60,165 bases of DNA from a virus (Duplodnaviria; Caudoviricetes), in the IMG/VR virus record IMGVR_UViG_3300007775_000011, positions 1-60,165 of that record; one strand, 5' to 3'. Positions within the stretch are counted from its first letter, which is position 1. Every line of letters begins with the position of its first letter. Below the pieces are notes generated by a model. The model searched no databases and was not told the DNA's origin. It saw only the letters and a list, made by a program, of their open reading frames with translations. This document shows positions 45,275-60,165 of this stretch, piece after piece. Position numbers and translations under genes: made by a program.

Positions 45275-45275
45275 A

Positions 45276-45750: not shown

Positions 45751-45758
45751 GTTTTATC

Positions 45759-46374: not shown

Positions 46375-46377
46375 CGC

Positions 46378-46608
46378 TTAATAACATGGATATTCACAGG
46401 CGCTCACGCAGTCATCACACCACGGCACCCCGTTACGTGGTACTTTTGCCAATTCTTTCTTGCTAACAAAAACTCCGCATTCGTGGCATTTTTCACGCTT
46501 TTGCACAGAACCAGTAAATTCAGTGGATTCGCTAACCTTGGCGTTTTGGTGGCAGTTATAAGGCGACAAGGTGCATGTGTCGTCATAAATGCAGTCTATA
46601 CATTCCAT
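46378..46608 (-). CDS. cassette ORF, Cys-rich protein
   Basis: MECIDC...CHEC...CDDC; start inside attC 46505-46637. Confidence 0.65.
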   Translation of the reverse strand: MECIDCIYDDTCTLSPYNCHQNAKVSESTEFTGSVQKREKCHECGVFVSKKELAKVPRNGVPWCDDCVSACEYPCY

Positions 46609-46637
46609 TCGCTCACCTTTGATTATGGTCGTTAGCA
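46505..46637 (+). other. attC site
   Basis: ACAGAAC CAGT AAATTCAGTGGAT ... CCTTTGATT ATGGTC GTTAGCA. Confidence 0.65.
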
Positions 46638-46853
46638 AAACGTCATACCAAGTAAAAACTGGAGCCTGTTTTCTAATTTCTCCAAATGCTCACGAGGCAC
46701 AACGCACACTGGCGTTCCATTCTCTATCTCTGCTGCTTCCTGCCACTCCGACAGGTATTTATCAGGCATCCCGCCGTGATCCATGACTATCTTCCCACCT
46801 ATTATTCTTAGCTTGTCTGGGGCAGCATCCCCAAGCTTTCTTATATTTTTCAC
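46632..46853 (-). CDS. cassette ORF, hypothetical
   Basis: GGAGG RBS then GTG at 46853; stop in R'. Confidence 0.65.
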   Translation of the reverse strand: MKNIRKLGDAAPDKLRIIGGKIVMDHGGMPDKYLSEWQEAAEIENGTPVCVVPREHLEKLENRLQFLLGMTFC

Positions 46854-46868
46854 GGCGTACCTCCTGTT

Positions 46869-46958
46869 TGCTAACCAGCGCATTAAATCGACTGGAATAA
46901 TCTTTGGTTATTAAAATCGGCCAGCCCATCGGCCAGCGGTTTATGCTAAACGTTAGCG
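46869..46958 (+). other. attC site
   Basis: TGCTAAC CAGC GCATTAAATCGACTGG ... CCAGCGGTTTATGC TAAAC GTTAGCG; closely similar to 59405-59494. Confidence 0.9.
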
Positions 46959-47222
46959 GTCCATGAATGGGCCGACAATAGTAACGTCAATAGTCCCTAA
47001 ATTCCATCCCCTTCTGTGTCGTATGCGTCTGCCAGGGGAGTAAGACAAAATATACCAAAGGTTTTGCCGTTTGATCTCAATCTTGATGCCCCACTGCATC
47101 CAGTTCGGCATTGCCTGGTTTACGGATTTACGAAGCCGATGGAATCCGCTAACCAGGCGTTGCACTCTGACCCCATGGGGCGTGGGTTCTTTGGTTGTTT
47201 GTTTATTCGGTGTTTCCATCAT
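46953..47222 (-). CDS. cassette ORF, hypothetical
   Basis: AAGGAG RBS and ATG inside attC 47147-47272; stop in R'. Confidence 0.65.
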   Translation of the reverse strand: MMETPNKQTTKEPTPHGVRVQRLVSGFHRLRKSVNQAMPNWMQWGIKIEIKRQNLWYILSYSPGRRIRHRRGWNLGTIDVTIVGPFMDR

Positions 47223-47272
47223 TTCAAATCTCCTTTGTTCACCCATGGGTCAGGTGAACTTAAACGCTCTAT
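47147..47272 (+). other. attC site (R' core mutated GTT>GCT)
   Basis: CGCTAAC CAGGC GTTGCACTCTGACCCCATGGG ... CCCATGGGTCAGGTGAAC TTAAAC GCTCTAT. Confidence 0.75.
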
Positions 47273-47431
47273 TTCCCGTCTAAATTATCCCATATATGGT
47301 CTAAAACCTTATTTCCAAGCTCTGTGTATCTAAGCCAGCCTCGCAATCCGCAGTCTCGCAAAGTCTTGTCTTTCAAAGTCTCAAATTCCTTTTGCTTGTT
47401 ATCCGGCTACCAGTTATGCCGGTCGTTATCT
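47269..47431 (-). pseudogene. truncated cassette: ORF remnant plus attC right half
   Basis: open frame ...LRGWLRYTELGNKVLDHIWDNLDGK* without a clear start; CAGTTATGC CGGTC GTTATCT without a left arm. Confidence 0.5.
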
Positions 47432-47629
47432 TCGACAACCTTTCATGCCAATAACGACTTCAAATTTTTCATGGCAGTTTTCACATTCCACAGTAAAACA
47501 TCCATTGTGTTTCTTGGGCTTCTTGTATCTCGCCCACGTTTCACACTTTTTGCACTGTCTGGGCAATCCTTTCAAAAACCGTTCACATCCAGGCTGAGAA
47601 ATTTCATCAATAAAATCTAAATTTTCCAT
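47426..47629 (-). CDS. cassette ORF, zinc-ribbon protein
   Basis: MENLDF...CKKC...CENC; stop in R'; could start at 47677 inside the attC. Confidence 0.65.
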   Translation of the reverse strand: MENLDFIDEISQPGCERFLKGLPRQCKKCETWARYKKPKKHNGCFTVECENCHEKFEVVIGMKGCRR

Positions 47630-47632
47630 GTC

Positions 47633-47718
47633 AGATAACCATCGCATTAACGCAGACTGGAAGAAAGCTGGCGGCATTGGCTCGTTCAAGGCCCAGCAGC
47701 TCAACAAAAACGTTATAT
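47633..47718 (+). other. attC site
   Basis: AGATAAC CATC GCATTAACGCAGACTGG ... CCAGCAGCTCAAC AAAAAC GTTATAT. Confidence 0.7.
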
Positions 47719-47733
47719 TGCTAAATAAAAATG

Positions 47734-47847
47734 TTGCCATGAAGGGAGTTGAACCCTCATCTGCCACCAGAAAAATCATACAGAATCGAACTGTATCAGC
47801 TTCCCCACCTTTCATGGGGAGGTGTCTGCCAATTTCACCACATGGCA
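47734..47847 (-). ncRNA. tRNA-like RNA occupying a whole cassette
   Basis: acceptor stem TGCCATG/CATGGCA, Leu-type D arm GTGAAATTGGCAGACAC, T arm GAGGGTTCAACTCCCTT; non-canonical anticodon loop and an extra TTCGATT hairpin. Confidence 0.7.
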
Positions 47848-47976
47848 ACATAACAAAAAAATAAAGCGGATTGCTAAAACCGTGGCGGATTTAAGTTATT
47901 GGCTGTGGCGCTACATTTCGGTAACGTCCAAGTTTTATACTAGCAATCCGCAACAGCTTATTATAGGTTGTTATCT
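47848..47976 (+). other. attC site (long, VCR-like layout)
   Basis: ACATAAC AAAA AAATAAAGCGGATTGCTA ... CAGCTTATT ATAGGTT GTTATCT. Confidence 0.75.
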
Positions 47977-48147
47977 TTCCCGTTCACGCATGGCATCCAA
48001 GGCCATGTTTATTAAGCGGGAAATTCCTTTACCTTTTTGCGCCCTGATCCACCTGTTATTAATCCGGCTTATCCTTGCGCCTATTCGTACATGGTCGGTT
48101 GTAGGGCCAACCTTTCGGCCAGCCCCTTTTCTTGCACCGCCTCTCAT
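47971..48147 (-). CDS. small DNA-binding protein (RGG motif + ribbon-helix-helix-like; not in ORF track)
   Basis: MRGGARKGAGRK...VRIGARIS...ISRLINMALD, 58 aa; stop in R'. Confidence 0.75.
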   Translation of the reverse strand: MRGGARKGAGRKVGPTTDHVRIGARISRINNRWIRAQKGKGISRLINMALDAMRERER

Positions 48148-48359
48148 ATGTATTTACCTGTTACAGGAGATACAACATACAAACCGCTTTCACTGTGCAA
48201 ATCATCTTTGATGCTACATATCCCTTCAGCCTCCAAAGTCTCAAAGGCAGCAAATAACTGTTTCTGCCCGGTGTGTATATTAAAACATCTCCCGTTATCC
48301 ATAGCCAAAGAGTTACATATCATCCTCACTGCTTCTATTTGCGCTTGTGCCTTTTTCAT
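48144..48359 (-). CDS. cassette ORF, hypothetical
   Basis: GGAGG RBS; first gene after the cassette promoter; ATGA-coupled to the next gene. Confidence 0.7.
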   Translation of the reverse strand: MKKAQAQIEAVRMICNSLAMDNGRCFNIHTGQKQLFAAFETLEAEGICSIKDDLHSESGLYVVSPVTGKYI

Positions 48360-48373
48360 GGTGTATCCTCCGT

Positions 48374-48429
48374 TTGGCTTTATTGCCCTTTGTTAAATAC
48401 AGAATATCATCATTTTTGATTTTTGTCTA
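48374..48429 (-). promoter_or_regulatory. cassette-borne promoter plus conserved leader
   Basis: TAGACA-17 nt-TATTCT with TGn extension; leader AACAAAGGGCAATAAAGCCAA repeated at 60089-60112. Confidence 0.7.
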
Positions 48430-48463
48430 CCTTTTTTCAATAAATAATTAAAATAAAGTAAAA

Positions 48464-48529
48464 AGATAACAAATAAATTAACGACGACAGGAAACCTGCG
48501 GTTTATCAGCCCTCATTATTGCCGTTATA
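48464..48529 (+). other. attC site (right boundary of array A)
   Basis: AGATAAC AAAT AAATTAACGACGACAGG AAA CCTGCGGTTTAT ... GTTATAT. Confidence 0.6.
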
Positions 48530-48606
48530 TTTTTAAGCTATTCCATCAATGTGGGTTATTGTTTCAACCCACCGGACAGGTATATCACCGGCCCATTCCT
48601 TGTCAT

Positions 48607-50055
48607 TCATCGAATAAAATTATTTGAACAAATAGGACAAGTCCAAATATTTTTCTTTTTATTATGGTACATCCATTCATTTCCGCAATTACAAGGATGA
48701 AAATGAACTTCATCTTTTTCATACCAACTTTTTCCAGCTGGAGAAAATTCTGTTTCAGCGTCAAGTGGTACGATTAACCACGGCCATACTTCACGAATAT
48801 CATGGCACATTATTTTATCAGTAACTTTCATTACATGATTTATTTCAGAGGGCTCAAAATCAAAAACAATAGCATCATGAATCTGTCCTAAGATCTTTGT
48901 TTCCCATTTCTCTTCTATAGATATTTTTTGAATATGAATCAAAGACCAAAGAAGACAATGAAAAGCTGATCCCTGTACAGCATAATTGATAGCTTCATTC
49001 CGGGACATTACTCCCTGATATCTAAAACCTGTAAAACTATCAAAATATCCATTTTCTTGATAGGATTCTACATGATCATTTTTCCATTGATTATAAACTG
49101 GATAGCGGTCTTCCCAAAATTTTCTTTCAACTTTTTGTATATGCTTTTCAAATTTTTTATAGGATCGGATACCGTGTTTTGCTAAATGTTTTTTTAATGG
49201 AACCCCATCTGCTGTTTTAAGATTTAACTGTTCTATTCCTACCCAAAGAGCTTGGGCGCAATTAACATAATAATCACCGTAAAATTGAGGAAAGACAAAC
49301 TTATTTTTACCGCAATATCTTGCATCTTTTGTCCACTCATCCATTTCTAATTTATAGCATTCCATTGCCATATCTCGGTGCATATCTCTTTCCGGGTCGG
49401 TAATATCCTCTATCATAGTGGGATCACGATGATAACAAGCGGCAACTTTTACTTCTATGCCGCCATAATCTTTTTCCCCAAATACTCTTTTATCTGTTCT
49501 TGGTAAAAAAGCTTTTCTTACCATACTTTTTACCCAAGGGATTCTAACCGGGATATTTTGGAAATTAATATTAGATGATGATGAACGAAAAGTGACTACA
49601 GTATGTAAATTAAAAAATGGGTAAAGAAAACCATCAACCTGTTCTCTGAGTATTCCTCCAAGATAGGTACCTTGGATTTTTTCCATTTTTCTTCTTTCTA
49701 ATAATAAATTAAGCCATTCCATATTAAGAGCTTGTAAACTTTCTTCATCAGTGGAACCTTGATCACCGCCAGTTTGTTTTTTTGCTTTTAATTTTAAATG
49801 ATCATAAAGAAGTTCGGATAATTGTTCATTGGAATTATATTTGAATTTACTGCCATATAACTCTTTCCATTTCTGTACTTCTTTATACTCACTTAATTTG
49901 ATTTCAGCTTTTTTGATTTTTTTTGTTAATCTTCGATCTTGTAAATGGCAATGATCTAAATCAATTTTCATTCCATTCAACTGGATCTGAGAAAGAGCCA
50001 ATGCCCCTTCATGAAGCAGCTGATATCCTTTGATGTCAACAGGAGTTATTTGCAT
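48607..50055 (-). CDS. polA: family A DNA polymerase, polymerase domain
   Basis: TFRSSS.NINFQNIP, DYGGIE (motif A), R..GK...F..FYG (motif B), NYAVQGSA, QIHD (motif C). Confidence 0.92.
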   Translation of the reverse strand: MQITPVDIKGYQLLHEGALALSQIQLNGMKIDLDHCHLQDRRLTKKIKKAEIKLSEYKEVQKWKELYGSKFKYNSNEQLSELLYDHLKLKAKKQTGGDQGSTDEESLQALNMEWLNLLLERRKMEKIQGTYLGGILREQVDGFLYPFFNLHTVVTFRSSSSNINFQNIPVRIPWVKSMVRKAFLPRTDKRVFGEKDYGGIEVKVAACYHRDPTMIEDITDPERDMHRDMAMECYKLEMDEWTKDARYCGKNKFVFPQFYGDYYVNCAQALWVGIEQLNLKTADGVPLKKHLAKHGIRSYKKFEKHIQKVERKFWEDRYPVYNQWKNDHVESYQENGYFDSFTGFRYQGVMSRNEAINYAVQGSAFHCLLWSLIHIQKISIEEKWETKILGQIHDAIVFDFEPSEINHVMKVTDKIMCHDIREVWPWLIVPLDAETEFSPAGKSWYEKDEVHFHPCNCGNEWMYHNKKKNIWTCPICSNNFIR

Positions 50056-51281
50056 ATATCAATTCCCAATTTTTTACGTTTTTCCCATTGAACTTCAGCC
50101 AACCGATATTCCAATAAAGAATCCAGAGCATTTCTTTTTAGAACATCTTTCATATTAGCTTCATAAATTCTATTAAAAGAATTAGCGTGCTTTTCCGTCC
50201 CTTTTAAAAATTCCCCGGTTGCGTCTTTAAAATCCATTATTCCAAAATTAACAATACTTTGAAATTCAAGATCATTACACCCACGGCGATTATCTAATGT
50301 ATGAGATCCATACATTGTATCCCATAACCAACCTTCTGGGATTATATTCATAATATGTCTAGTCCACATATCTTCAAATTTCATGTGATGGGCTATTTTT
50401 TTAATATTTGGATTTTTAAGAATCCGGCCCCAAATCCTTTCAACATTTATATCATCAAAAGGAAAGGCAAAAGCATTATCCCTATCAGTTGCTATACTTA
50501 AAGTGACAATATGGTGTCCTTTTGCAATAGGACGTAGACCAGTTGTTTCATAATCAAAAGCAATAGGATTTATAAACCCTCTATTTATTTCTTCCAATTT
50601 GGGCAGTATTTGTTTAGGAGATGTTAAAATTTCAATACAACTTTCAGGGTCTTTCCATTCCGGGAAATCATCTTGGTAATGATCAATAGCATTTTTGAGA
50701 TCCATCTCAAATATAGTTTCAATAACCTGATTCCCGTGCGCGGCTTTTTTTACATAAGCTGGGTGGTACATTGGGAATATCCAACATTTATGATCTTGGT
50801 CAGGTATTTGCCAACCCCTCCAAGAATAAATCCCGGTACCCACAGAAACACGATGGCCGAAACAACTATCAATAGCGATATTACCCAATAAAAATATGGC
50901 CTTTGGTTTGTATTTTTTAATGACTTTTAAAATCCGGTTTCGACAAGCTTGGATTTCTTTTGGTTTTGGATTTCTACTATCAGGTGGGTGACAATTAACG
51001 CTATTGATTTTTATACAATCTCTATCTATATCAATCTTGTTTCTTTTTAATAATCTGCGGAGATATAGACCTGGTTTACCAACTAATTGTTTTCCAAGTT
51101 TATCTTCTTTTTCTCCCGGAGCCTCAGCCCAGATTAATATTTCTTTTTTACCTTCTCCGTGAGGTTTCATTTTCGGAGATTTACAAGACCGATATAGACC
51201 GCAGGAGGCGCATCCAATAGTTTTACCGGATGCCCCCCTGTTTATTCCAACAATTTCGTCTTTACTAAAAAAGCCGGACAT
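50046..51281 (-). CDS. family-4 uracil-DNA glycosylase domain fused to a 3'-5' exonuclease domain (N-terminal part of a split SPO1-type polymerase)
   Basis: CASC..C, EAPG..ED, CHPP..R.P, YHPAY; then DYETTGL, HHMKFE, DTM, NALD. Confidence 0.88.
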   Translation of the reverse strand: MSGFFSKDEIVGINRGASGKTIGCASCGLYRSCKSPKMKPHGEGKKEILIWAEAPGEKEDKLGKQLVGKPGLYLRRLLKRNKIDIDRDCIKINSVNCHPPDSRNPKPKEIQACRNRILKVIKKYKPKAIFLLGNIAIDSCFGHRVSVGTGIYSWRGWQIPDQDHKCWIFPMYHPAYVKKAAHGNQVIETIFEMDLKNAIDHYQDDFPEWKDPESCIEILTSPKQILPKLEEINRGFINPIAFDYETTGLRPIAKGHHIVTLSIATDRDNAFAFPFDDINVERIWGRILKNPNIKKIAHHMKFEDMWTRHIMNIIPEGWLWDTMYGSHTLDNRRGCNDLEFQSIVNFGIMDFKDATGEFLKGTEKHANSFNRIYEANMKDVLKRNALDSLLEYRLAEVQWEKRKKLGIDICK

Positions 51282-52315
51282 CAGTTTTCCTTTGCCATAG
51301 CTACAACGTGTTTGAAGTTATCCTTTTCAAATAATATTGATTTATCTCCAATAATCGCAGTACGAAACATTTTAAGAATTTGGATAAAATTTGAAGGGTT
51401 AATTTTAAAAGTACATTCCCCGGCTTTGGATTTCATTTTAAGGGACTTTTTAAACCACCCATTATCCCCTTTCCCTTCCACTGTTAACTTTTTCTTGTTA
51501 ACAGAAACTATCAATGAATTATTATCTGCCATAATAGTTGCATTATTTATAGCAGATATCAAATCTTTGGGAAATTCAATTTCATCTCCATCTACTTTAA
51601 AAAAACTGGAAATATCTGGATATTTCCCATCGTGCGTTCTACAGCTAAAAATGGTGCCTAAGCGGTTTTTAAAATGGGCCCATCCTTCGGTATGGGAAAT
51701 CTTTACAGGCTTATAAGAAGCTAAATGACGAGCTGAGGAAGCTGGTAAAAGATACCCTTCACTATCAGCTCCTGTTTCTGTGTCCCAAATAGTAGCACGG
51801 GAATTATCACAAGATTGAATAAAATCAGGCTTTACATATAAACATGTAAAAATTGGTTGGGAAGCATCGCCGGAAGCAGAGAAAATACAACTGTTTATAG
51901 CGGTAATAAAATTATCAGGATTAGGGATTTTCTTAAACTTTTTGGGTTGTGACATTTCTTCGATAGGCAAACGAATTTCTTGTTCAAGTCTGATCCCGGC
52001 TTCCCCATCCGATTCTGTAGAGATAGTTAATTCAGAATTATCAATTTCCAGTTCAATTTCTTCGCAAGAAAAACTTTTTAAAATACTGAAAAACTCTCTT
52101 GCTTGAACTGCTGCCTTCATATCTAAAGAACCATCCCCAACAAGTGGGTGTTGTATGGCTATTTCATCATTAAAAGTCATAGCCATATCTTCATTAAATA
52201 CAAAACAGGAAGCTTGCTCAACAAGACTATTTTCAGAAGCAATCCCCGGCTGAAGTATTTGTAAAATATCCAATAATTCTTTTCTATTAATTTTCATTGC
52301 TCCTTCTCCTTGCAT
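51281..52315 (-). CDS. dnaN: DNA polymerase sliding clamp (beta-like)
   Basis: KINRKELL, CDNSR, GKYPD; size. Confidence 0.8.
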   Translation of the reverse strand: MQGEGAMKINRKELLDILQILQPGIASENSLVEQASCFVFNEDMAMTFNDEIAIQHPLVGDGSLDMKAAVQAREFFSILKSFSCEEIELEIDNSELTISTESDGEAGIRLEQEIRLPIEEMSQPKKFKKIPNPDNFITAINSCIFSASGDASQPIFTCLYVKPDFIQSCDNSRATIWDTETGADSEGYLLPASSARHLASYKPVKISHTEGWAHFKNRLGTIFSCRTHDGKYPDISSFFKVDGDEIEFPKDLISAINNATIMADNNSLIVSVNKKKLTVEGKGDNGWFKKSLKMKSKAGECTFKINPSNFIQILKMFRTAIIGDKSILFEKDNFKHVVAMAKEN

Positions 52316-52322
52316 TAAATTA

Positions 52323-53144
52323 TTATTCCCAACTATGTATTTTTTTTATTTCAACAGGATTCATTCTTTTTTTGAAAAAATAAAGAGATTCACTATCAAG
52401 ACAACCCCCATCATTAATCAATCTTGGATCATTTTGAATAAATGGAAAGGTATAAAAACAATATTGGACATATTCAGATAGAAAAGGTTCTGGAGCGCAT
52501 ATACAATAACGAAAATTGATATATTTCCAATTGTAATCCCAAATTACAATAGCTTTTAATTCGTTATTGCAGCATAATCCATAACGATTAAACCCCTTAT
52601 CTAAATAAATAGTTAATGTTTCGGGGTCATATATGACTTCTTCGGAGTTTTTATTTTGCAACCATTTTAAAAAAAGTTCATTAATATCATCACTCATTCT
52701 TTTTGTAACATAATTGCAACAAGGATCATTTAAGTTAACCCAAGTATATAATTTTCCTTTCGGCCATTTTTTGATATTTTTTCTAAAGGTTTTCCATTTA
52801 TTCCCTGAAAGATCCAAAAAGTTTCTTTGATCAAAAATAAATTCATAATCAAGAAATTTAGATATAGGGCCACAAACTCTATATACATTTGGCCAATTAG
52901 GAAAATCGGCCCGTACTCCTTTCATTGGCATATAAGGCCATTTTATATCTGTTCGGAGCGGGGGGAATAAATCAAATTTTTTATCATCAAAAGCATGAAT
53001 ACCGCTATGATTTTGTTCTTCAGTAATTCCGGCTTTTTCAAAATATTCACGACTAATGAAAAAGTTAGGATCAATCTTGGTTTTTTTCAGAGTTTCCAGA
53101 TATAATCCCAAGTGTTGTTCCTTCTGGTTGTTTTTTTGTCCCAC
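52323..53144 (-). CDS. DUF2156/GNAT-fold protein
   Basis: DYEFIF....LDLSGNKWKTFRKNIKKW, INDGG....L..FK.RMNP. Confidence 0.6.
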   Translation of the reverse strand: MGQKNNQKEQHLGLYLETLKKTKIDPNFFISREYFEKAGITEEQNHSGIHAFDDKKFDLFPPLRTDIKWPYMPMKGVRADFPNWPNVYRVCGPISKFLDYEFIFDQRNFLDLSGNKWKTFRKNIKKWPKGKLYTWVNLNDPCCNYVTKRMSDDINELFLKWLQNKNSEEVIYDPETLTIYLDKGFNRYGLCCNNELKAIVIWDYNWKYINFRYCICAPEPFLSEYVQYCFYTFPFIQNDPRLINDGGCLDSESLYFFKKRMNPVEIKKIHSWE

Positions 53145-53179
53145 AACTTGATCCCCCCATTTTTATTAAAGCGGTTTCC

Positions 53180-53365
53180 TTAAATATAAACAATTAATTC
53201 TTGTTCCATTTGCTTTAATAAATTTTTTGCTATTCTTTTCCGCTTATTATTTTTGCAATATTCTTCCATTGCGTCTATAATAATTTTAGATTCTTTGGTG
53301 GAAGCAAAAATAATAGAATCCCCCGTTTCTGTTCCTTTTCCATTATATAATAGAGCGATTTTCAT
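53180..53365 (-). CDS. hypothetical protein
   Basis: 61 aa, ATGA-coupled. Confidence 0.55.
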   Translation of the reverse strand: MKIALLYNGKGTETGDSIIFASTKESKIIIDAMEEYCKNNKRKRIAKNLLKQMEQELIVYI

Positions 53366-53589
53366 AATGTTATTTTTTCAAGTTTTATTTTAGAGGGTTT
53401 TCTTGATTGAGGAGTAAAATCTAATTCTTGTATCATTTCGGCTTGTCCCTTACTTAAAAAAGTAAGAGCCTCAGAACGTTGTCCCCAAGTCCATTTACCA
53501 TCTTTAACAGTGAGGAATTTTTTCCAGTTTCTTTTTTTAGATTTAGGTATAGAAACGATTAAGAATATTTCTATTTCCATTTGATTCAT
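53362..53589 (-). CDS. hypothetical protein
   Basis: 75 aa, GGGGG RBS. Confidence 0.55.
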   Translation of the reverse strand: MNQMEIEIFLIVSIPKSKKRNWKKFLTVKDGKWTWGQRSEALTFLSKGQAEMIQELDFTPQSRKPSKIKLEKITL

Positions 53590-53630
53590 CCCCCGGTTTT
53601 GGTTTAATTACTTATTTTCAACTTTTAGGG

Positions 53631-53684
53631 ATTGGAGGGGGAATTGAACCCCCCAACAGCGTCCTACCCTTTCCTAAGCCCAAT
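53631..53684 (-). ncRNA. tRNA-like minihelix (acceptor stem + T arm only)
   Basis: ATTGGG...GGGGG TTCAATT CCCCC TCCAAT. Confidence 0.4.
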
Positions 53685-53876
53685 ACATAAAAACCAAAAA
53701 TAAATAATTAATAAAGGGGTGGGACTAGAATGGGAGAGCCAGCCCCACCCCTTTAAAGTCCTACATAAAGGCGTAATTTTATAAAATATTATAAATTATT
53801 GTTTTAATCTAATCCATAAACAAACCACCTCCTTCTTCCGGGCCAACTATCCGGGATCGGCTACTTGGTTTATTAA

Positions 53877-54125
53877 TTAGTATTTCCTTATTTTATTTTT
53901 GGGATCGAAAGCTTTGGCAAAAAAAGCTTTTAATTCACCATATCCATTACCAAATATTTTATCCCAAAACTGAGAATAATAATATATATTTCCATCATCT
54001 TCCTCCCAAGACAAAATTCCTTTTAAATCTCCATCTTTACAAATTTTAAATTCAATTTTAGAACAGGAGGCATTGTGTTGTTTAAGTGTATTTTTTAAAA
54101 GCTTTTCAATCTTTTTTAAATTCAT
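53877..54125 (-). CDS. hypothetical protein
   Basis: GGGAG RBS before MNLKKIEK. Confidence 0.55.
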   Translation of the reverse strand: MNLKKIEKLLKNTLKQHNASCSKIEFKICKDGDLKGILSWEEDDGNIYYYSQFWDKIFGNGYGELKAFFAKAFDPKNKIRKY

Positions 54126-54309
54126 TTTCTTTCTCCCTTTCTTTTTGTTCTTGGACAAATTTTGTAAAGAAAGATTTTTCAATAGCTTCAAATTCATCAG
54201 AAGTTAAATTAATATTGCGTTTAAAAAATAACCCTTCCCGGTCTTTAAAATCCAATTGAATAGTTCTGCGATCATTTTTATATACTGTAGGAAGTTTAGC
54301 AATAATCAT
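54106..54309 (-). CDS. hypothetical protein
   Basis: 67 aa, abuts the upstream glycosyltransferase. Confidence 0.5.
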   Translation of the reverse strand: MIIAKLPTVYKNDRRTIQLDFKDREGLFFKRNINLTSDEFEAIEKSFFTKFVQEQKEREKENEFKKD

Positions 54310-54310
54310 A

Positions 54311-55456
54311 TTATTTTCTTTTGATAAGTTTCATTCCATATTCATCATTGCTTTTTATTGGGGTAATATCAGGTTTTAAAATTGGTTTATTACGTTTAAA
54401 TTTTGAATAATCAACTTGATGGTGCCAACGATTAAATTTAAAAACTATATCAACAACATCAGGATGTTGTTTTTGGAGACTTTTAGCAAATGATTTTCGA
54501 TAATCATTTGTATTGTATACATTATCTGTATTTCCACCTTTTAAGGCTCCTTTAGTTTTTCCACCGTCAAATGTTTTTCCTTTATTCATTAAAAGGACAT
54601 AGAATAATAAAGTACAATATCCATCTTTTAATAATCTGAGACTGAGATCAGTATCTTCATTATATCTTCCCCGCCATCTATGCGGCAGATCAGTCTTTAA
54701 AAGAATACAAGAATAAATTCTGGAATTGAATAAATAAGGAGGGTGATTGGGAGATCGGTCACGGACGAAACCTTGATCATGTGGTCCGGCCATTACTATA
54801 TTTTCATATCTGTCAACAAAATCTTCCATAGCCCGAAAGAAACCACCCCCGGTCACTTTTAATCTTCGGTTATGATTACACCTTGTAAATGTAGTTATAT
54901 TGTCATCAACAGTCCAATGACGTTTAAATCCTCTTTTTTTACACCATTCCCATATATAATTTCGTGCCGGCACTGATCCTCTTCCAAGATCATGAAAAGG
55001 CATAACAACTACTTTATTTTTTCCAAGGTGTTTTATATATTCTTCAGCTTCGGTTTCTTCAACAAAAAATTTATAAGAAACCCCAAGTTGATCCAGTAGT
55101 TTTCCTGTAGTTTGGACATCGGCCCTTCCTTTACTCGGTATACAAACTGGATATTTAGAATCTTCAGGTGGGCCCGTATATTCAAATTTATTTTTTTCAA
55201 GTGGTTTTTGTCCAGGGTACCACGCAGAATCAGTTCTTTTATTAATTCTAATTCCTAATTTTTCGGCAAATTCTTTTACATCTTCTTCAGTCATAAAATT
55301 CATAACTATTCTGCGTTGTGGAGATGCATCTTTCATAACAAATTCAGGCATTCCCCACCACATATCTTTCCAATGTGGCTCGAATAATCCAAAATCAATA
55401 GATTCTTTTTCACGGGTAGGTCGATTTTCGTTTAATTCTTTTTCAAAATTATCCAT
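54311..55456 (-). CDS. TAGT/GREB1-like GT-A glycosyltransferase
   Basis: WWGMPEF N-terminal domain; YPVCIPSKGR, ARNYIW, WTVDDN, WRGRYNEDTDLSLRLL, GGNT, RWHHQVDY. Confidence 0.8.
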   Translation of the reverse strand: MDNFEKELNENRPTREKESIDFGLFEPHWKDMWWGMPEFVMKDASPQRRIVMNFMTEEDVKEFAEKLGIRINKRTDSAWYPGQKPLEKNKFEYTGPPEDSKYPVCIPSKGRADVQTTGKLLDQLGVSYKFFVEETEAEEYIKHLGKNKVVVMPFHDLGRGSVPARNYIWEWCKKRGFKRHWTVDDNITTFTRCNHNRRLKVTGGGFFRAMEDFVDRYENIVMAGPHDQGFVRDRSPNHPPYLFNSRIYSCILLKTDLPHRWRGRYNEDTDLSLRLLKDGYCTLLFYVLLMNKGKTFDGGKTKGALKGGNTDNVYNTNDYRKSFAKSLQKQHPDVVDIVFKFNRWHHQVDYSKFKRNKPILKPDITPIKSNDEYGMKLIKRK

Positions 55457-55468
55457 ATTAATACCTGT

Positions 55469-55536
55469 TTTAATTATTTTTATTTTTTAAATAAACAACT
55501 TGTTTCGACTCTATTTAAAAAATAAAAATAATTAAA
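55469..55536. repeat. perfect 25-bp A/T-only inverted repeat, 18-nt spacer
   Basis: TTTAATTATTTTTATTTTTTAAATA / TATTTAAAAAATAAAAATAATTAAA. Confidence 0.85.
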
Positions 55537-55548
55537 GGGGCGAGTACT

Positions 55549-55587
55549 AAAAAGTTTTAAATCCCTCTTAAATTTAAAAACAAGGGG
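55549..55587 (-). repeat. conserved intergenic motif, copy 4
   Basis: reverse complement CCCCTTGTTTTTAAATTTAAGAGGGATTTAAAACTTTTT, preceded by a GGGGATATA/TATATCCCC hairpin. Confidence 0.85.
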
Positions 55588-55630
55588 GATATACCGTTTG
55601 ATATATCCCCCATTTCGATCCGGGTATATA

Positions 55631-56179
55631 TTATTTCCCGGATGCCTGTTTTCTCAGAACGGCATAGATGGCGTTGCCGATAACACGGTATGACTTTTCA
55701 GGGAATTTTTCCTTAACTTCAAGAACAACATCATCTTCGTGTCTGTCCCCAAGACCGTCTTTCAGGGTTTCCTGCAGAAAAGTTGCCATCCCTTCTTTCT
55801 TTTTGCCGGCACCTTTCTTTTTGGAACCGGATTTTTTAGCCTTGCTCTTATCTTTCGGAGCGGCCTTTTTTTCTTCTTCCTCTTTGGCCCCTTCTTCATT
55901 GACCTTGGGACCAATTTCAAGTTCTTCAAAAAGAGCCCAGGTTTCATCGGTCAGCGGATCACTTTCAGCAACATCAGCGTCTGCGATTTCGATAATTTCC
56001 GCTTTCAGTTCTTCGATGTCGGAATCGGTATCAAGAGGTGGTTCAAGACCGATAACATCATTCAGATCTTCGGCGGCGGCGATCAGGCGTTTATCCATAC
56101 TGGGGCCTTTTTTCTTGGCCGGGGCTTTTTTCTTGCCGGTGGTATTTTTCGTTGTTTTTCCTGTTGCTTTCTTTGCCAT
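55631..56179 (-). CDS. Lys-rich/acidic hypothetical protein (histone H1-like tracts)
   Basis: MAKKATGKTTK..KKAPAKKK; AAGGAG RBS; own promoter. Confidence 0.75.
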   Translation of the reverse strand: MAKKATGKTTKNTTGKKKAPAKKKGPSMDKRLIAAAEDLNDVIGLEPPLDTDSDIEELKAEIIEIADADVAESDPLTDETWALFEELEIGPKVNEEGAKEEEEKKAAPKDKSKAKKSGSKKKGAGKKKEGMATFLQETLKDGLGDRHEDDVVLEVKEKFPEKSYRVIGNAIYAVLRKQASGK

Positions 56180-56245
56180 GGTAATTCTCCTTTGTTTTGG
56201 TTTGTTTATGGCTTTTGGTTAAGTACTGTATTGATCTTGTAAAAC

Positions 56246-56274
56246 ATCATATTCTATTTTTAACACTAAGTAAA
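56246..56274 (-). promoter_or_regulatory. sigma70-type promoter
   Basis: TTTACT-17 nt-TATGAT with a T-rich UP tract, same design as 4650-4678. Confidence 0.65.
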
Positions 56275-56312
56275 GAAAAAAAAGAGATAAAAAAGAAAAA
56301 AATTAATTTTTA

Positions 56313-57860
56313 TTAAAAATAGCTTCCCAAATAAGGTCTGCCGGTTTCTAAAGATTGCAAAACTTTAATCTCCAAAGATTGATCAAATTCACCTTCCCTA
56401 CCCAATAAAGGTGACATTCTCATTATTTTATCTTTCTTTTCTTTTGCTGTTTGGTTTAAAGCATAAGCAGCAGTCACGTGATCCCACTTTCTTCCGGATT
56501 CACTAAAGTTTTTAGTTCTTAATTTTCTTGTTTCTAATCCATCTGAATCTGCCTGGGTAGCGGTAATGAAACATAAATTATATTTTAAACTGATTTGCCG
56601 CACTGCTTTCCAAACCTCATTAATTTTATGTCTCATATCAATTCGATTATCAGACCATTCAAGTAAATCAATATAATCCAAAACCAATACTTTCGGAATC
56701 CATCCTCTATTTGCCCATATTTCTAAAATAGATATTAATTCATTAATTCTCAAAGAAGGTCGGGCAACTACACGAAAATCATTAGACCCGGAAAATTTGC
56801 TCATCCATTTCAATCCAGCTCTATAGCCTTCACGCCAAGTCAAAGGTTCCACCTTTTCTCTGATTTTATACCAGACTGCTCCTTTAAATTTTTGAGGATT
56901 CCTTTTTAAACAATATGTACAGGGGACATATCCTAATTCGGTTGCATCTTCAAATGAAATTTTCGCAGGCGGTTCATCTTCTTTTTCCGGCTCTTCATAT
57001 AGTCCAAAATCGCAAGTTCTTTTTTTTATACTACAAGAATCGGTTTGATTATGAAGACAATCTATTATTGGTATTTTAATTTCACCACAATATCTTTGGT
57101 CATAGCTTTTTTGGCATAATCTTACATGAAGTCTTCTGACCTGCTGTTCCTCACTTAAATCTCCGATTTGAAATAAGGCAACTCTATTACGAAAACGATG
57201 AGCCCGGAAAGCTAACTCATCAAGCCACCACGTTTTACCTCTTTTTGCCGGGGCTAAAAAAGAAATGAAAGTTCCTTCTGAAAATTGATTATTAAAAAGA
57301 ACGTCTAAAGCTCCTGGATATGTGAAAAGAGGGTCTTGGAACGTCTCAAAAGCAGTTCTGATTTTATCAGCATTAGTAAAAGGATTGAAACCCAAATCTT
57401 CATGAAGTTCTATAGATCGGTAATTTTCAAGAACTTCTTGTGCATGTAACGGCTCATCATCATGTAAAGCTTGGCTGGCTTCTCTAATTGTTATTTTTAT
57501 TCTTCTTTCGTCTAGATAAGCTCTTGATTGTTTTAAATAATATTCAAAGTCATATTCTTTTTCTTTTTCATATTGGTTACTCAAAGAATCCATAAGATCA
57601 GCCATATCATCGGCCAAATCTTCATCAATATCATCTTTTCTTACTTTTTGATCATATATCTCTTGGAGTAGTTTCCCCGGAGCTTTCCCAAATTCTTCAT
57701 GGTATTCTAAAATCCAATTACATAATAATTTACTTACATCAGCTTGGAATAAATCAAGATTTAATTCAGGATATATGGACTTCAGAAAGGGGGTGCTAAT
57801 AGCCAACCCAATTAATAAATTCCTTTCTGAAGAAACTTTTATTTTTCTTTTGCGTATCAT
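56313..57860 (-). CDS. dnaB: replicative DnaB-like helicase
   Basis: APAKRGKT Walker A, VLDYIDLL, ITATQA, FSES..K; Cys-rich insertion. Confidence 0.82.
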   Translation of the reverse strand: MIRKRKIKVSSERNLLIGLAISTPFLKSIYPELNLDLFQADVSKLLCNWILEYHEEFGKAPGKLLQEIYDQKVRKDDIDEDLADDMADLMDSLSNQYEKEKEYDFEYYLKQSRAYLDERRIKITIREASQALHDDEPLHAQEVLENYRSIELHEDLGFNPFTNADKIRTAFETFQDPLFTYPGALDVLFNNQFSEGTFISFLAPAKRGKTWWLDELAFRAHRFRNRVALFQIGDLSEEQQVRRLHVRLCQKSYDQRYCGEIKIPIIDCLHNQTDSCSIKKRTCDFGLYEEPEKEDEPPAKISFEDATELGYVPCTYCLKRNPQKFKGAVWYKIREKVEPLTWREGYRAGLKWMSKFSGSNDFRVVARPSLRINELISILEIWANRGWIPKVLVLDYIDLLEWSDNRIDMRHKINEVWKAVRQISLKYNLCFITATQADSDGLETRKLRTKNFSESGRKWDHVTAAYALNQTAKEKKDKIMRMSPLLGREGEFDQSLEIKVLQSLETGRPYLGSYF

Positions 57861-57887
57861 AGAACGGTACCAATCAGATGCAAGAGT
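57855..57887 (-). repeat. 33-bp exact copy of terL 6197-6229 (inverted)
   Basis: ACTCTTGCATCTGATTGGTACCGTTCTATGATA at both loci. Confidence 0.9.
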
Positions 57888-57935
57888 TTATGCCGCGCAT
57901 TCATTGGCGCGGTCTGGTTATAATCGGCGTTATAT
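57859..57935 (+). other. attC site (left arm atypical)
   Basis: GCCGCGC...GCGCGGTCTGGTTAT AATCGGC GTTATAT; left arm is the terL-identical segment. Confidence 0.55.
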
Positions 57936-57937
57936 TG

Positions 57938-58153
57938 CTAGTTATTGAAAACTATCAATTCCACCGGCACATTACGCACAGACCCATCGGGCATCTCTAC
58001 AACCGCAGTAGTAAAGTTCCCCGGGCCATTCTCAAACTCTTCATAGTTAACCCCAAACTGGTGAAACACCCCATTTCCTACAGCAACCTTATCAAAGTGT
58101 GTTTGGCCCTTTACCCTTTGCCACTCATAAACAACAACTTTCCTAGTTTCCAT
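57938..58153 (-). CDS. cassette ORF, conserved-looking phage hypothetical protein
   Basis: G.FHQFGVNYEEFENGPGNFTTAVVEMPDG. Confidence 0.8.
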   Translation of the reverse strand: METRKVVVYEWQRVKGQTHFDKVAVGNGVFHQFGVNYEEFENGPGNFTTAVVEMPDGSVRNVPVELIVFNN

Positions 58154-58167
58154 ATATTAGCCCCCCA

Positions 58168-58261
58168 AGATAACAATTAAATTCACGCAGACGGCGCGAA
58201 CGTGGGCGGCACTATCCGTGTATTTCTTCGGTGGTGCCGCTGATGATTATGTGCGTTATGC
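58168..58261 (+). other. attC site
   Basis: AGATAAC AATT AAATTCACGCAGACGGC ... GCCGCTGATGATT ATGTGC GTTATGC. Confidence 0.8.
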
Positions 58262-58480
58262 GTACGAATAACTTGATCCGAACTCTTCTTTATATCCACA
58301 CGAACAAACACCAAACTTGTCTACTCTGTATATCTCTCCAAATGGGCCACTGTCTAATGTTTTTCTACCAAATATTTTTACTTTATGTCCCAAGTATTGA
58401 GCGTGATAGTCGAGTGTACTCATAACACCACGGTTAACTTGACAAGAAGAGGCTTGTGTCTTTTTTGTTGTTTCTTTCAT
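58256..58480 (-). CDS. cassette ORF, hypothetical (H...CSC motif)
   Basis: start inside attC 58420-58507; stop in R'. Confidence 0.7.
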   Translation of the reverse strand: MKETTKKTQASSCQVNRGVMSTLDYHAQYLGHKVKIFGRKTLDSGPFGEIYRVDKFGVCSCGYKEEFGSSYSYA

Positions 58481-58507
58481 GGCTTACAAGTTACCTCCAC
58501 GTTATGT
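58420..58507 (+). other. attC site
   Basis: TCATAAC ACCAC GGTTAACTTGAC ... CAAGTTACC TCCAC GTTATGT. Confidence 0.85.
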
Positions 58508-58831
58508 TCTCAACTTGCGACGGTATTCATCCATCCCAATACGTCGCAAATTTGAGTAATCATTGTCAAGCAAAGCCCATGCGAAGAAAACACCGTAGGT
58601 AATCATGGCAACGGTACGCAAATACTCCCCCGGGCCAATTACTAGCCAACAAACAACCACTAATATTATAGACGGCAAACCGAACAGCAAACAGAATCGG
58701 GTGATATCGTTGTACCAAAACCAAATCCAAAAAGAATCATAACCAGTCGCTTCACTTGACCCCAAGGGGTCGGCGTTCTGCGCTTTGTCAAATCCTGTTT
58801 CTGGGTCTAAATCAAACGGGCTATTATTCAT
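58502..58831 (-). CDS. cassette ORF, two-TM membrane protein
   Basis: GGAGG RBS and ATG inside attC 58737-58871; two hydrophobic helices. Confidence 0.75.
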   Translation of the reverse strand: MNNSPFDLDPETGFDKAQNADPLGSSEATGYDSFWIWFWYNDITRFCLLFGLPSIILVVVCWLVIGPGEYLRTVAMITYGVFFAWALLDNDYSNLRRIGMDEYRRKLRT

Positions 58832-58871
58832 TTTGTCCTCCCCTTGGGTCAAGTGACCTCAATCGTTATCT
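58737..58871 (+). other. attC site
   Basis: TCATAAC CAGTC GCTTCACTTGACCCCAAGGGG ... CCCCTTGGGTCAAGTGACC TCAATC GTTATCT. Confidence 0.88.
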
Positions 58872-59123
58872 TGCCGACCATGTTAAAAAGCTTTTATATG
58901 CCATCCCAGCCCAAAACATATACAACGGAAGCCATGTTTTATTTTCAACTGCTGCTCCTATAAAATAGGCAGGCATCCAAACAGTAGCACAAACAAAAAA
59001 GGCTATTAGCATCCTCCACTTCTTGACAAAGATAACCAGTCGCTTAACAGCTGACCGCAAGAACTGGTGCGGTTTTTGTTCCTCTTCTGCTATCGTTACC
59101 GTCTGTTCATGGTCGTATTTCAT
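58866..59123 (-). CDS. cassette ORF, two-TM membrane protein
   Basis: AAGGAG RBS and ATG inside attC 59030-59168; stop in R'. Confidence 0.75.
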   Translation of the reverse strand: MKYDHEQTVTIAEEEQKPHQFLRSAVKRLVIFVKKWRMLIAFFVCATVWMPAYFIGAAVENKTWLPLYMFWAGMAYKSFLTWSAR

Positions 59124-59168
59124 TGGTTTCTCCTTCTTGCGGCAGGTTAGCTTATTAAAACGGTGGGT
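59030..59168 (+). other. attC site (R' degenerate)
   Basis: AGATAAC CAGTC GCTTAACAGCTGACCGCAAGAA ... TTCTTGCGGCAGGTTAGC TTATTAAAAC GGTGGGT. Confidence 0.65.
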
Positions 59169-59180
59169 TGCTCAAGTATC

Positions 59181-59387
59181 TTAAGTAATGGCTCCGTTTA
59201 CATCTATGTTTGTAACGTCAGCAAGAACTCCCTCAAGCCATCTAATATTGTCATGCCATGCCTCAGTAAAAGTTATTTTTCCGGTATCAATATCTTCCTG
59301 GTGCATAAACTCAAATCCACAGATGTTTTCATACTTCTGCATGCACTGACGCTGTTTACTGTTTATTTTCTTTGCGTATACAGCCAT
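59181..59387 (-). CDS. cassette ORF, hypothetical
   Basis: AGGAGG RBS 7 nt before MAVYAKK. Confidence 0.75.
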   Translation of the reverse strand: MAVYAKKINSKQRQCMQKYENICGFEFMHQEDIDTGKITFTEAWHDNIRWLEGVLADVTNIDVNGAIT

Positions 59388-59404
59388 TCGCATACCTCCT
59401 TGCA

Positions 59405-59494
59405 ACCCAACCAGCGCATTAAAGCCGACTGGAATAAAGTTTGTTTATTAAAATCTGCCAGCACGGGGCCAGCGGTTTATGCTTAACGTTAGTT
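59405..59494 (+). other. attC site
   Basis: ACCCAAC CAGC GCATTAAAGCCGACTGG ... CCAGCGGTTTATGC TTAAC GTTAGTT. Confidence 0.9.
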
Positions 59495-59497
59495 TAC

Positions 59498-59635
59498 TTA
59501 GTGCGTATTAACCACACTCTTGATATCTATACTATGCAATCTACTTTCCTTTAGTGCCAAATTAATAGCCTCGAAAAATTCCATCATCATTTTGCTTTCC
59601 CATACTTCACCATTATAAAAAGTAACTTTCCACAT
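59498..59635 (-). CDS. cassette ORF (45 aa; not in ORF track)
   Basis: GAGG RBS; MWKVTFYNGEVWESKMMMEFFEAINLALKESRLHSIDIKSVVNTH. Confidence 0.65.
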   Translation of the reverse strand: MWKVTFYNGEVWESKMMMEFFEAINLALKESRLHSIDIKSVVNTH

Positions 59636-59649
59636 AAATTTACCTCGTA

Positions 59650-59734
59650 AACTAATAATAAAATTAATCTGACTAGAAGAAGTTTGGGTTGCAAGCGCAG
59701 TCTGGTGGCTGGAAGCTTATTATCGGCGTTATCT
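59650..59734 (+). other. attC site (R'' AAC>AAT)
   Basis: AACTAAT AATA AAATTAATCTGACTAG ... CTGGAAGCTTATT ATCGGC GTTATCT. Confidence 0.65.
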
Positions 59735-59893
59735 TTCAGTAGCTTCAACCTTGCAGCCCTTTAAGACTATTCGGAAAAGGTCTGGCTTATTCTTTGCCCA
59801 GTTCCCCAAGGTCTGCAAGCTCTGTCCGGTCAACCGTGCAACCACAGAGAGGCTTTTCAGTCCCTCCGCTTTTGCCTGTTGTGATGGGGTCAT
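59729..59893 (-). CDS. small HTH DNA-binding protein
   Basis: MTPSQQAKAEGLKSLSVVARLTGQSLQTLGNWAKNKPDLF; stop in R'. Confidence 0.75.
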   Translation of the reverse strand: MTPSQQAKAEGLKSLSVVARLTGQSLQTLGNWAKNKPDLFRIVLKGCKVEATER

Positions 59894-59894
59894 T

Positions 59895-60068
59895 TTAGTC
59901 ATCTTCTCCGGCAACATACTCTCCGTCCATGTCATAGATAGCAACGCTTCCAGTATGGTCACAATTGTTGTCAAACTGGGTTATAGCAAAATCAAGAGCT
60001 TCTTCTGCTGTCTCGCATCCTGTGATTGTCATTGAGCTGTTTCCGCATATTGCTTTATATTCTTTCAT
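59895..60068 (-). CDS. small acidic protein (57 aa; not in ORF track)
   Basis: AAGGAG RBS; MKEYKAICGNSSMTITGCETAEEALDFA...GEDD. Confidence 0.7.
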   Translation of the reverse strand: MKEYKAICGNSSMTITGCETAEEALDFAITQFDNNCDHTGSVAIYDMDGEYVAGEDD

Positions 60069-60088
60069 TGTTCTTCTCCTTAGTTTGG

Positions 60089-60144
60089 TTGGCTTTATTG
60101 CCCTTTGTTAAACATAGAATACCAAACTATTTTAAACATTGCGA
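60089..60144 (-). promoter_or_regulatory. cassette-borne promoter plus conserved leader
   Basis: extended -10 TGGTATTCT; leader core identical to 48374-48397. Confidence 0.65.
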
Positions 60145-60165
60145 TACTTATTTTAAATTATTTTA

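Follow-up and report, generated by a model that had tools for sequence, protein, structure and literature searches.

Two phage gene arrays headed by a shared promoter-leader: candidate autoregulated early operons with exchangeable first genes

The virus record IMGVR_UViG_3300007775_000011 of IMG/VR was analysed over its whole length (60,165 nt, linear, 87% complete by the CheckV estimate; hereafter the window). Two stretches break its backbone of replication genes, at ~45275-48606 (array 1) and 57861-60165 (array 2). Both have a G+C content of 0.42-0.45 versus ~0.35 in the backbone, and their open reading frames (ORFs) are mostly small. The first unit of each insertion, in transcription direction, is what we call a head: an extended −10 promoter and a leader shared by the two heads, an orphan small ORF (A1 or B1) and a gene for a small, putatively DNA-binding protein (A2 or B2). 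We read the heads as autoregulated early operons with a swappable payload ORF, which would operate like the operons of anti-CRISPR (acr) and anti-CRISPR-associated (aca) genes, and give this reading a probability of about 55%.

The window contains the 24-mer TTTAACAAAGGGCAATAAAGCCAA at two positions only, 48374-48397 and 60089-60112 (both minus strand), according to a search that allowed up to 3 mismatches and for which 100 shuffles gave 0 expected matches. The statement of the first-pass annotation that TGn-TATTCT and an identical 24-nt segment stand at both heads was therefore borne out. The shared block extends to 36 nt with 92% identity (48374-48409 versus 60089-60124) and includes the extended −10 TGnTATTCT, as TGATATTCT at 48401-48409 and as TGGTATTCT at 60116-60124. 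On the minus strand, the two heads have a common layout of AT-rich upstream sequence, the extended −10, five variable bases and TAACAAAGGGCAATAAAGCCAA, followed by 6-14 bases, a strong Shine-Dalgarno (SD) site and ATG. The parts of the two heads are listed below.

48401..48429, minus strand: head-1 promoter TAGACA-17-TG-a-TATTCT (promoter scan; 9/12 matches, with the TG)
48412-48425, in the head-1 spacer: two tandem CAAAAAT heptads, a putative ribbon-helix-helix (RHH) operator
48374..48397, minus strand: shared 24-nt leader, copy 1, with a GGC-N6-GCC mini stem or palindrome
48144..48359, minus strand: A1, orphan ORF of 71 aa with a strong SD (GGAGG), from the ORF list
47971..48147, minus strand: A2, 58 aa, RGG/GAGRK arm and RHH fold; its start overlaps the A1 stop
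60116..60165, minus strand: head-2 promoter, with both 11-nt operator blocks at family spacing
60154-60164, minus strand: head-2 operator 1; the contig ends 1 nt upstream
60139-60144, minus strand: head-2 weak −35, TCGCAA
60123-60133, minus strand: head-2 operator 2
60116-60124, minus strand: head-2 extended −10, TG-g-TATTCT
60089..60112, minus strand: shared 24-nt leader, copy 2, from the same repeat search
59895..60068, minus strand: B1, orphan, strongly acidic ORF of 57 aa, from the ORF list
59729..59902, minus strand: B2, 57-aa four-helix regulator resembling helix-turn-helix (HTH) proteins; its start ATGACTAA overlaps the B1 stop

The relatives of B2 carry most of the evidence for autoregulation. 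Thirty-nine proteins including B2 itself were collected at E ≤ 0.01, the 38 others being 61-87% identical to it, and relatives were present in 33 cultured phage records (30 Vibrio, 2 Marinomonas and 1 Pseudoalteromonas). The loci compared were the best 80 of 96 IMG/VR stretches encoding a relative. The promoter of the family consists of AAATA(A/G)TTT(G/A)AAATAA, TTGCAT, the spacer cctTCAAATAGTTTG and TATAAT. The motif CAAATAGTTTGATATAAT (up to 3 mismatches) was found within 1.5 kb upstream of B2 in 45/78 loci and in 0/78 downstream controls of the same size. Head 2 has both 11-nt operator blocks, 31 nt apart as in the family member L079, and agrees with the family at 25 of 37 strongly conserved columns, shuffled sequences reaching 14.1 on average and 26 at most. 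A short quasi-palindrome (CAAA-N3-TTTG), repeated directly on either side of the −35, makes up the operators. Since a duplicated quasi-palindrome around the −35 accompanies the regulator gene, which is a signature of autoregulation, B2 is probably the repressor of its own promoter. The proposal of the first-pass annotation that the heads may be autoregulated is in this way well supported by comparison for head 2; for head 1 we infer it only.

The genes in front of B2 behave differently from B2 itself. B2 was delimited by a regular expression in 54 of the 80 loci, and in 41 of these 54 the stop of the upstream ORF overlaps or abuts the B2 start. When these 41 upstream ORFs were compared with A1, B1 and the first ORF of an outside locus described below (L024), the 44 sequences fell into 36 BLASTP clusters; such hypervariability contrasts with the median identity of 64% between pairs of B2. 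The promoter-leader units belong to few near-identical types across the loci, among them the type of the window's leader, each standing before different first ORFs, which suggests that the unit is conserved up to the start codon and that the payload is swapped behind it. In the cultured Pseudoalteromonas virus H6/1, the same promoter is followed by gp41, gp42 and the B2-like gp43, directly after the DnaB gene. Among the 39 upstream ORFs searched for known families, one is a Lar-like restriction-alleviation protein.

B2 is best read from the ATG that overlaps the B1 stop (57 aa) and not as the 81-aa frame from a TTG. It matches PHROG 409, 'transcriptional regulator' (E 8.5e-5), and its model has four helices at a predicted local distance difference test (pLDDT) score of 89.6. 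A Pfam search gave no match for B2, and Foldseek against the Protein Data Bank (PDB) gave nothing significant. Aca10 and Aca1 were among its fold matches at Z 3.4-3.6, a level that many other HTH proteins reached as well. The assignment of B2 as an HTH protein, as far as a sequence match and a model can tell, is thus partly supported: the PHROG match speaks for it and the fold search ended in ties.

A2 belongs to a family with 15 representatives at E ≤ 1e-3, in which a conserved MRGGxRxGAGRK is followed by a beta-alpha-alpha core. The AlphaFold2 model of A2 (pLDDT 77.9) leaves residues 1-27 without assigned secondary structure and has helices at 28-36 and 42-57. Forty-three solved chains were fold neighbours at Z ≥ 2 (best 3.9), most of the titles read being RHH proteins, with many RHH antitoxins among the structural neighbours. 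Values of Z up to 3.9 are low in absolute terms, as expected for about 40 residues. Neither a Pfam search nor Foldseek against the PDB gave a match for A2. The predicted model and its fold neighbours support the reading of A2 as RHH-like, so that for A2 the earlier description as a coupled DNA-binding gene stood. Heptad repeats are bound by RHH repressors such as omega (entry 2bnw), and because the head-1 spacer has CAAAAAT heptads, A2 plausibly regulates head 1. The context of A2 relatives came from one distant viral locus only, L122, which is arranged differently: at 1733-2698 of that locus, two A2-like genes (GGKRxGxGR plus RHH) flank a 220-aa ORF, the family being repeated within the locus.

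Structural neighbours of A1 (Atlas model) were winged-helix-like, all under the tool's bar. A1 and B1 were found to be unrelated to each other and had only self-matches among 5.8 billion proteins, which agrees, together with BLASTP, with the earlier statement that the first ORFs, of 57-71 aa, are mutually unrelated.

Copies of the leader were sought outside the window. The exact 24-mer had 0 matches in IMG/VR; the 17-mer core had 4 matches there, none in promoter context, and the TATTCT-gap-leader pattern had 4 matches, all within coding sequence. A 20-mer had 6 matches in GTDB representative genomes, none in context, and blastn against cultured phages and plasmids returned weak partial AT-rich matches only. 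No copy with up to 6 mismatches was found near the relatives of the window's family-A polymerase gene, polA (16 viral contigs with a related polymerase, 41-49% identity). Six matches at 5-6 mismatches in the 80 B2 loci were read as chance, none of them lying at the B2 promoter. A 22-nt identity with the 3′ end of rpsR (S18) of a cyanobacterial metagenome-assembled genome (L025/L035) was likewise judged to be chance; an origin from rpsR was rejected because the phage frames continue without a stop and the match count fits random expectation.

In metagenomes the 20-mer had 9 matches, of which the one in locus L024 was the sole true copy. It reads TTGACA-17-TATTCT-gtaat-TAACAAAGGGCAATAAAGCCAA-SD-ATG, with 22/24 leader bases, the same −10 and the same 5-nt spacing. 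The L024 leader heads three ORFs: an unrelated 71-aa ORF; a weakly HTH-like 65-aa ORF (HTH_23, E 0.003, below the Pfam cut-off), which overlaps the first through the same ATGACTAA junction as B1/B2; and a third ORF. It directly follows a tyrosine integrase gene (PF00589, E 3.6e-28), and attC-like sites were absent from L024. No BLASTP similarity was found among the protein sets of head 1, head 2 and L024. The same −10 and leader thus stand before three unrelated gene pairs, as would follow from the promoter-leader being a portable module. From the arrangement at L024, the leader appears to go with the layout of a small ORF and a small DNA-binding gene, and not with attC arrays. The association of the leader with array heads elsewhere, a check suggested by the first-pass annotation, failed when run, with this single outside copy lying beside an integrase gene in a locus that lacks attC-like sites. 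At ~5640-5700 on the reverse strand of L024, a segment resembles by eye the 3′ half of tRNA-Arg(CCU), with anticodon arm, T arm and acceptor end. Its place beside the integrase and the module headed by the leader is that expected of an attP-type core; ARAGORN found no complete tRNA at L024.

The leader itself contains a GGC-AATAAA-GCC mini hairpin, which the first-pass annotation had pointed out. In each of the three leader RNAs it forms the minimum-free-energy element (−4.2 kcal/mol), and to this extent the claim stood; its z-scores, from −0.8 to −1.6, were unremarkable. A 3-bp G+C stem with a 6-nt A-rich loop recurs 13 nt past the −10 in four diverged leader subtypes (GGC-aataaa-GCC, GGC-aataac-GCC, GGC-aattcc-GCC and CGC-aataac-GCG), with one two-sided stem change among them, from GGC/GCC to CGC/GCG. 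An RNA stem-loop near the 5′ end and a DNA palindrome at about +7 to +18 would fit these data equally. An outer stem between the five variable bases after the −10 and downstream sequence forms in all three copies but was rejected, as its partners differ from copy to copy and the stem would be situated upstream of the likely start. A T7-like RNA polymerase promoter, a LexA site and an integration host factor site were also rejected on inspection by eye. Rfam gave nothing at the gathering threshold, the sole match at E ≤ 1 being to a meaningless small nucleolar RNA model. When the leader is translated from its reverse complement, all three copies give LALLPFV(K/N)(Y/H)RI.

The borders of the heads are formed by junctions that resemble integron attC sites. 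Those next to the heads are the following.

48464..48530, minus strand: J1.0, attC-like (ATATAAC...GTTATCT), between the polA stop and head 1
47848..47976, minus strand: J1.1, 129 nt, attC-like (AGATAAC...GTTATGT), with the A2 stop codon in its left end
59650..59734, minus strand: J2.1, the junction after B2 (AGATAACGCCGATAATAAGC...), right end approximate

About 8 junctions of the form xTAAC...GTTAYNT were recognised, oriented with the genes and often with a stop codon inside the left end. GTTATCT/AGATAAC occurs at 1.2 and 1.7 copies per kb in the two arrays versus 0.07 and 0 copies per kb elsewhere in the window; of 11 GTTATCT copies in total, 8 fall in arrays. The AGATAAC/GTTATCT pair departs from the RYYYAAC/GTTRRRY consensus, GTTATCT misfitting GTTRRRY at two positions. 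J1.0 folds into one imperfect hairpin closed by ATAAC/GTTAT (z −1.48) and J1.1 into one long imperfect hairpin (z −2.41); J2.1 has no single-hairpin fold (z +1.59). A single closed imperfect hairpin was formed by only these first two of 8 junctions, z-scores were mostly unremarkable, and a crude arm-pairing detector gave the junctions no score above shuffles. The earlier description of the heads as promoter-bearing two-gene units was upheld. Head 1 follows a GTTATCT-type attC-like junction; the left border of head 2 is cut off, only 41 nt of sequence being present ahead of the second repeat copy.

Similar borders were found around part of the B2 relatives. An R′-like heptamer lies just upstream of the promoter in 9/45 relative loci versus ~2.8 expected. 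In 12 loci chosen for having such a site, the B2 stop falls within xTAAC in 10, and an R′-like site follows the B2 stop by 33-90 nt in at least 6. A loose attC pattern applied to 46 relatives was enriched directly upstream of the promoter only, with no enrichment downstream of it. AttC-like ends (xTAAC...GTTAYRY) bracket the unit in about a quarter of the relatives. In a minority of phages, these motifs thus suggest that the unit of promoter, payload and B2 is bordered like an integron cassette, similarly to head 1 here, and we file it as a unit putatively carried in attC-like-bounded cassettes.

Several further elements were noted in and between the junctions. J1.4 (46873-46956) and J2.2 (59409-59492, minus strand) are copies of a ~84-nt element, ~88-96% identical and present once per array, with a terminator-like hairpin; the repeat had 0 matches in IMG/VR, and a similar element follows the B2 homologue in the viral locus L083. 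Two long inverted repeats with TAAC/GTTA ends lie at 58740-58868 and 59045-59149. The ORFs 58502-58852 and 58866-59123 have their ribosome-binding sites and 5′ ends inside these repeats, which is unusual for cassette junctions. Between J1.1 and J1.2, a non-coding cassette (47733-47847, minus strand) has a cloverleaf-like fold with two T-arm-like hairpins (−46.7 kcal/mol over 145 nt). ARAGORN reports it as tRNA-Lys(ttt) with a 38-nt insert at relaxed thresholds only, and no Rfam tRNA match was obtained at E ≤ 1; the 141-aa ORF that covers it (47426-47851) is probably spurious.

In the mechanism that we propose, each head would be a self-contained, self-repressed early expression unit. It would begin with an extended −10 promoter of the sigma-70 type and a 5′ leader of ~45 nt bearing the GGC-N6-GCC stem or palindrome and a strong SD, followed by a swappable payload ORF and then a translationally coupled, minimal DNA-binding protein. 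This protein would most likely bind operators around the −35 and in the spacer of its own promoter. The proposed targets of B2 are the two AAATA(G/A)TTTG blocks with their 31-nt spacing, and those of A2 may be the tandem CAAAAAT heptads. Upon phage entry, a burst of payload expression would be followed by shut-down through the regulator. The promoter-leader would be a conserved portable module, with the first genes exchanged behind it. We infer transcription from the head sites and repression by A2 and B2; A1 and B1 would have an anti-defence or host-takeover role, and the head promoter may be read through into the downstream cassettes. A wider proposal, which we find doubtful though conceivable, is that units of promoter, operator and repressor move as attC-bounded cassettes from phage to phage, and perhaps between phages and host chromosomal integrons as well. 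They would serve as plug-in expression heads for promoterless arrays in integrase-less virulent phages. The −10/leader block would then be the functional joint where regulators and payloads recombine, a common factor recognising it either as an RNA stem or as a DNA palindrome.

A number of results weigh against the reading of the heads as acr-aca-like operons. The B2-type operator is not present in head 1, and the heptad operator proposed there comes from a single sequence. A generic sigma-70 scan found 52 promoter-like sites in 45000-60165 versus 51.1 expected, which is no excess, and no RNA run containing the window stretch was listed. The exact leader is rare, with no true copy in IMG/VR, GTDB representatives, cultured phages or plasmids. 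The fold search of B2 placed ribosomal protein L20 on top (Z 5-5.7), ahead of HTH proteins at Z 3.2-3.6, and in a profile search against PDB sequences A2 and B2 were unrelated to any solved Aca protein. Only 1/39 payload ORFs belongs to a known anti-defence family, and 32/39 match no PHROG. In many relatives B2 lies 200-1200 nt from the promoter, within a longer string of early genes; given this distance, B2 might be no analogue of Aca but a common early regulator of the Cro type.

Other explanations of the heads were weighed against the same evidence. A pair of coupled small genes that has its own promoter and lies in an attC-like array could be a toxin-antitoxin (TA) cassette, in which the first ORF is the toxin, the DNA-binding protein is antitoxin and autorepressor, and the array is stabilised as in chromosomal integrons. 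Own-promoter double-ORF TA cassettes have been described in integrons, one of them phage-borne (PMC9892861). RHH and HTH folds are common as antitoxin DNA-binding domains, and RHH antitoxins are among the A2 neighbours. However, B2 is conserved beside 33 unrelated upstream-ORF clusters in 41 loci, which is incompatible with a cognate toxin-binding partner, and no toxin family matches A1 or B1. Antitoxins of the RelB, ParD and HigA types neutralise their toxins through a C-terminal extension, and the models of A2 (58 aa) and B2 (57 aa) contain nothing beyond the DNA-binding domain. The TA-like character that the first-pass annotation had considered is disfavoured by the dozens of unrelated ORFs beside B2 and by the lack of such an extension, and we regard it as quite unlikely. 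The heads might also mainly supply transcription to promoterless cassettes of an array that lacks the integron platform of integrase, attI and cassette promoter (Pc). Their first position in both GC-richer insertions would suit a Pc surrogate of the kind inferred in the first-pass annotation, as would the insertion of array 1 into the backbone between polA and the clamp loader gene, the xTAAC...GTTAYNT ends of the junctions and the concentration of GTTATCT in arrays (8/11 copies). Clusters of attC sites without integrase (CALINs) are moreover documented in virulent phages (PMC9892861). Yet terminator-like hairpins occur in junctions J1.4, J2.2 and J2.6, the arrays lie within a long co-directional replication cluster that could read through, and attC-like elements are not enriched downstream of the promoter in the 46 relatives. 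The low number of junctions closed by a single hairpin (2/8), with an arm-pairing detector not above shuffles, and the lack of an integrase among the 20 large window ORFs scanned speak against it too, and such a role as the main one seems improbable to us.

The perfect 24-nt identity within one genome between unrelated flanks, and the keeping of promoter-leader units across loci with different first ORFs, could result from recombination alone. The shared 36 nt would then be a homology patch left by gene conversion or module exchange, with no function beyond the −10, similar to the promoter-early stem-loop (PeSL) elements of T4-like phages; these are described in PMC4122927 as composite promoter/terminator motifs and exchange points between unrelated sequences. 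Against this, the same −10, the 5-nt spacing and 22/24 leader bases recur in the unrelated L024, and GGC-N6-GCC or CGC-N6-GCG stays at a fixed distance from the −10 in diverged leaders. The recurrence in L024 and the fixed position of the stem argue for selection on the leader itself, and a mere recombination joint is in our judgement an unlikely account. A chance similarity or an assembly artefact was considered as well, the contig ending 41 nt from one repeat copy at a CheckV completeness of 87%. But 0 chance matches are expected and the third copy in L024 is independent. A DNA run, which may be the source sample, contains 99% of the sampled words of 45200-50200, and the same proteins are recorded on a second contig of 62,504 nt; we consider an artefact extremely improbable.

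The replication module in which the arrays are embedded runs on the minus strand from ~60165 down to ~36900. It also encodes a sliding clamp and has an exonuclease/uracil-DNA glycosylase gene, a RecA-like gene and SbcCD-like genes. The other genes located are as follows.

56313-57860: DnaB-like helicase, replication module
54311-55456, minus strand: TET-associated glycosyltransferase (PF20691, E 5e-40)
48607-50055: family-A polymerase (polA), replication module
44306-45274: clamp loader, replication module
12-923: primase, at the opposite end of the record from the replication module

The glycosyltransferase suggests that the phage DNA may be hypermodified. No tyrosine recombinase or integrase was found among 20 large window ORFs scanned. 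In 11 of the 16 viral contigs with a related polymerase, an ORF of 302-322 aa lies within ~420 nt after polA; in the one contig checked, it is homologous to the window clamp loader (31% identity, E 3e-57). Because a clamp-loader-like ORF adjoins polA in relatives, array 1 appears to be an insertion into a conserved gene order. In the relatives L014, L015 and L018, the polymerase match spans ~1.9 kb versus ~1.35 kb, so that their polA may contain inserted sequence such as an intein or an additional domain. Array 1 ends (45547-46638, minus strand) in a series of small, abutting Cys-rich (CxxC) ORFs without attC-like junctions. The sequence TGNTATTCT has 13 copies in the window versus 3.8 expected; 10 of the copies are on the plus strand (10041-57708), away from both heads.

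If the heads are autoregulated operons with swappable payloads, the B2 unit marks hypervariable early genes in dozens of uncultured and cultured marine-type phages, and the marked genes would be prime candidates for new anti-defence or host-takeover proteins. Such a search follows the guilt-by-association logic by which anti-CRISPRs were uncovered. The attC-like bracketing would add a regulated promoter module to the few integron-like cassettes reported in phages, and points to a way in which arrays lacking an integron platform might be expressed. As for the invariant leader, it would be a compact 5′ untranslated region (UTR) or +1 element.

The heads were compared with four known systems. As in a Cro/PR-type early unit of temperate or lytic phages, a small HTH protein would repress the promoter of its own operon via repeated operators; unlike there, the heads have no divergent repressor gene or immunity region, and the regulator is at the payload end and not at the start of the operon. 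The PeSLs of T4-like phages are short promoter-plus-stem-loop elements at the borders of variable genes, where they act as exchange points, in hyperplastic regions between core genes (PMC4122927, PMC2839356). The sequences of the heads are different, their 3-bp stem is downstream of the promoter and they have their own repressor gene, so PeSLs are likened to them by analogy only; from the replication genes scanned, the gene content of the window was judged to be unlike that of a T4-type phage. The own-promoter (TA) cassettes of integrons and the phage CALINs share with the heads two-gene cassettes, an internal promoter and flanking sites, of the xTAAC...GTTRRRY type, which the junctions of the window resemble. 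Integrase-less attC arrays occur in virulent phages, and some of the sites recombine with IntI1 (PMC9892861). The heads, by contrast, combine a hypervariable partner ORF with a minimal DNA-binding protein, which is unlike a TA pair, and their junctions are candidate attC sites, with GTTATCT off consensus.

The closest operational likeness is to acr-aca operons. According to PMC13551039 and PMC6765145, these have a strong promoter, one or more small hypervariable orphan ORFs and a conserved small HTH or RHH repressor at the operon end, with operators that overlap the promoter and conserved 5′ UTR motifs. PMC13551039 describes HTH or RHH (Aca14) autorepressors and structured 5′-UTR motifs in the known operons, the Aca proteins binding both these motifs and promoter DNA. 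The heads differ in that an anti-defence role of the payload is presumed, that the B2 operators flank the −35 and that the unit is bracketed by attC-like ends. In common with acr-aca operons, a conserved small DNA-binding gene was found 3′ of small variable ORFs in phage, and operator repeats in the promoter, putative for head 1, co-occur with the regulator gene.

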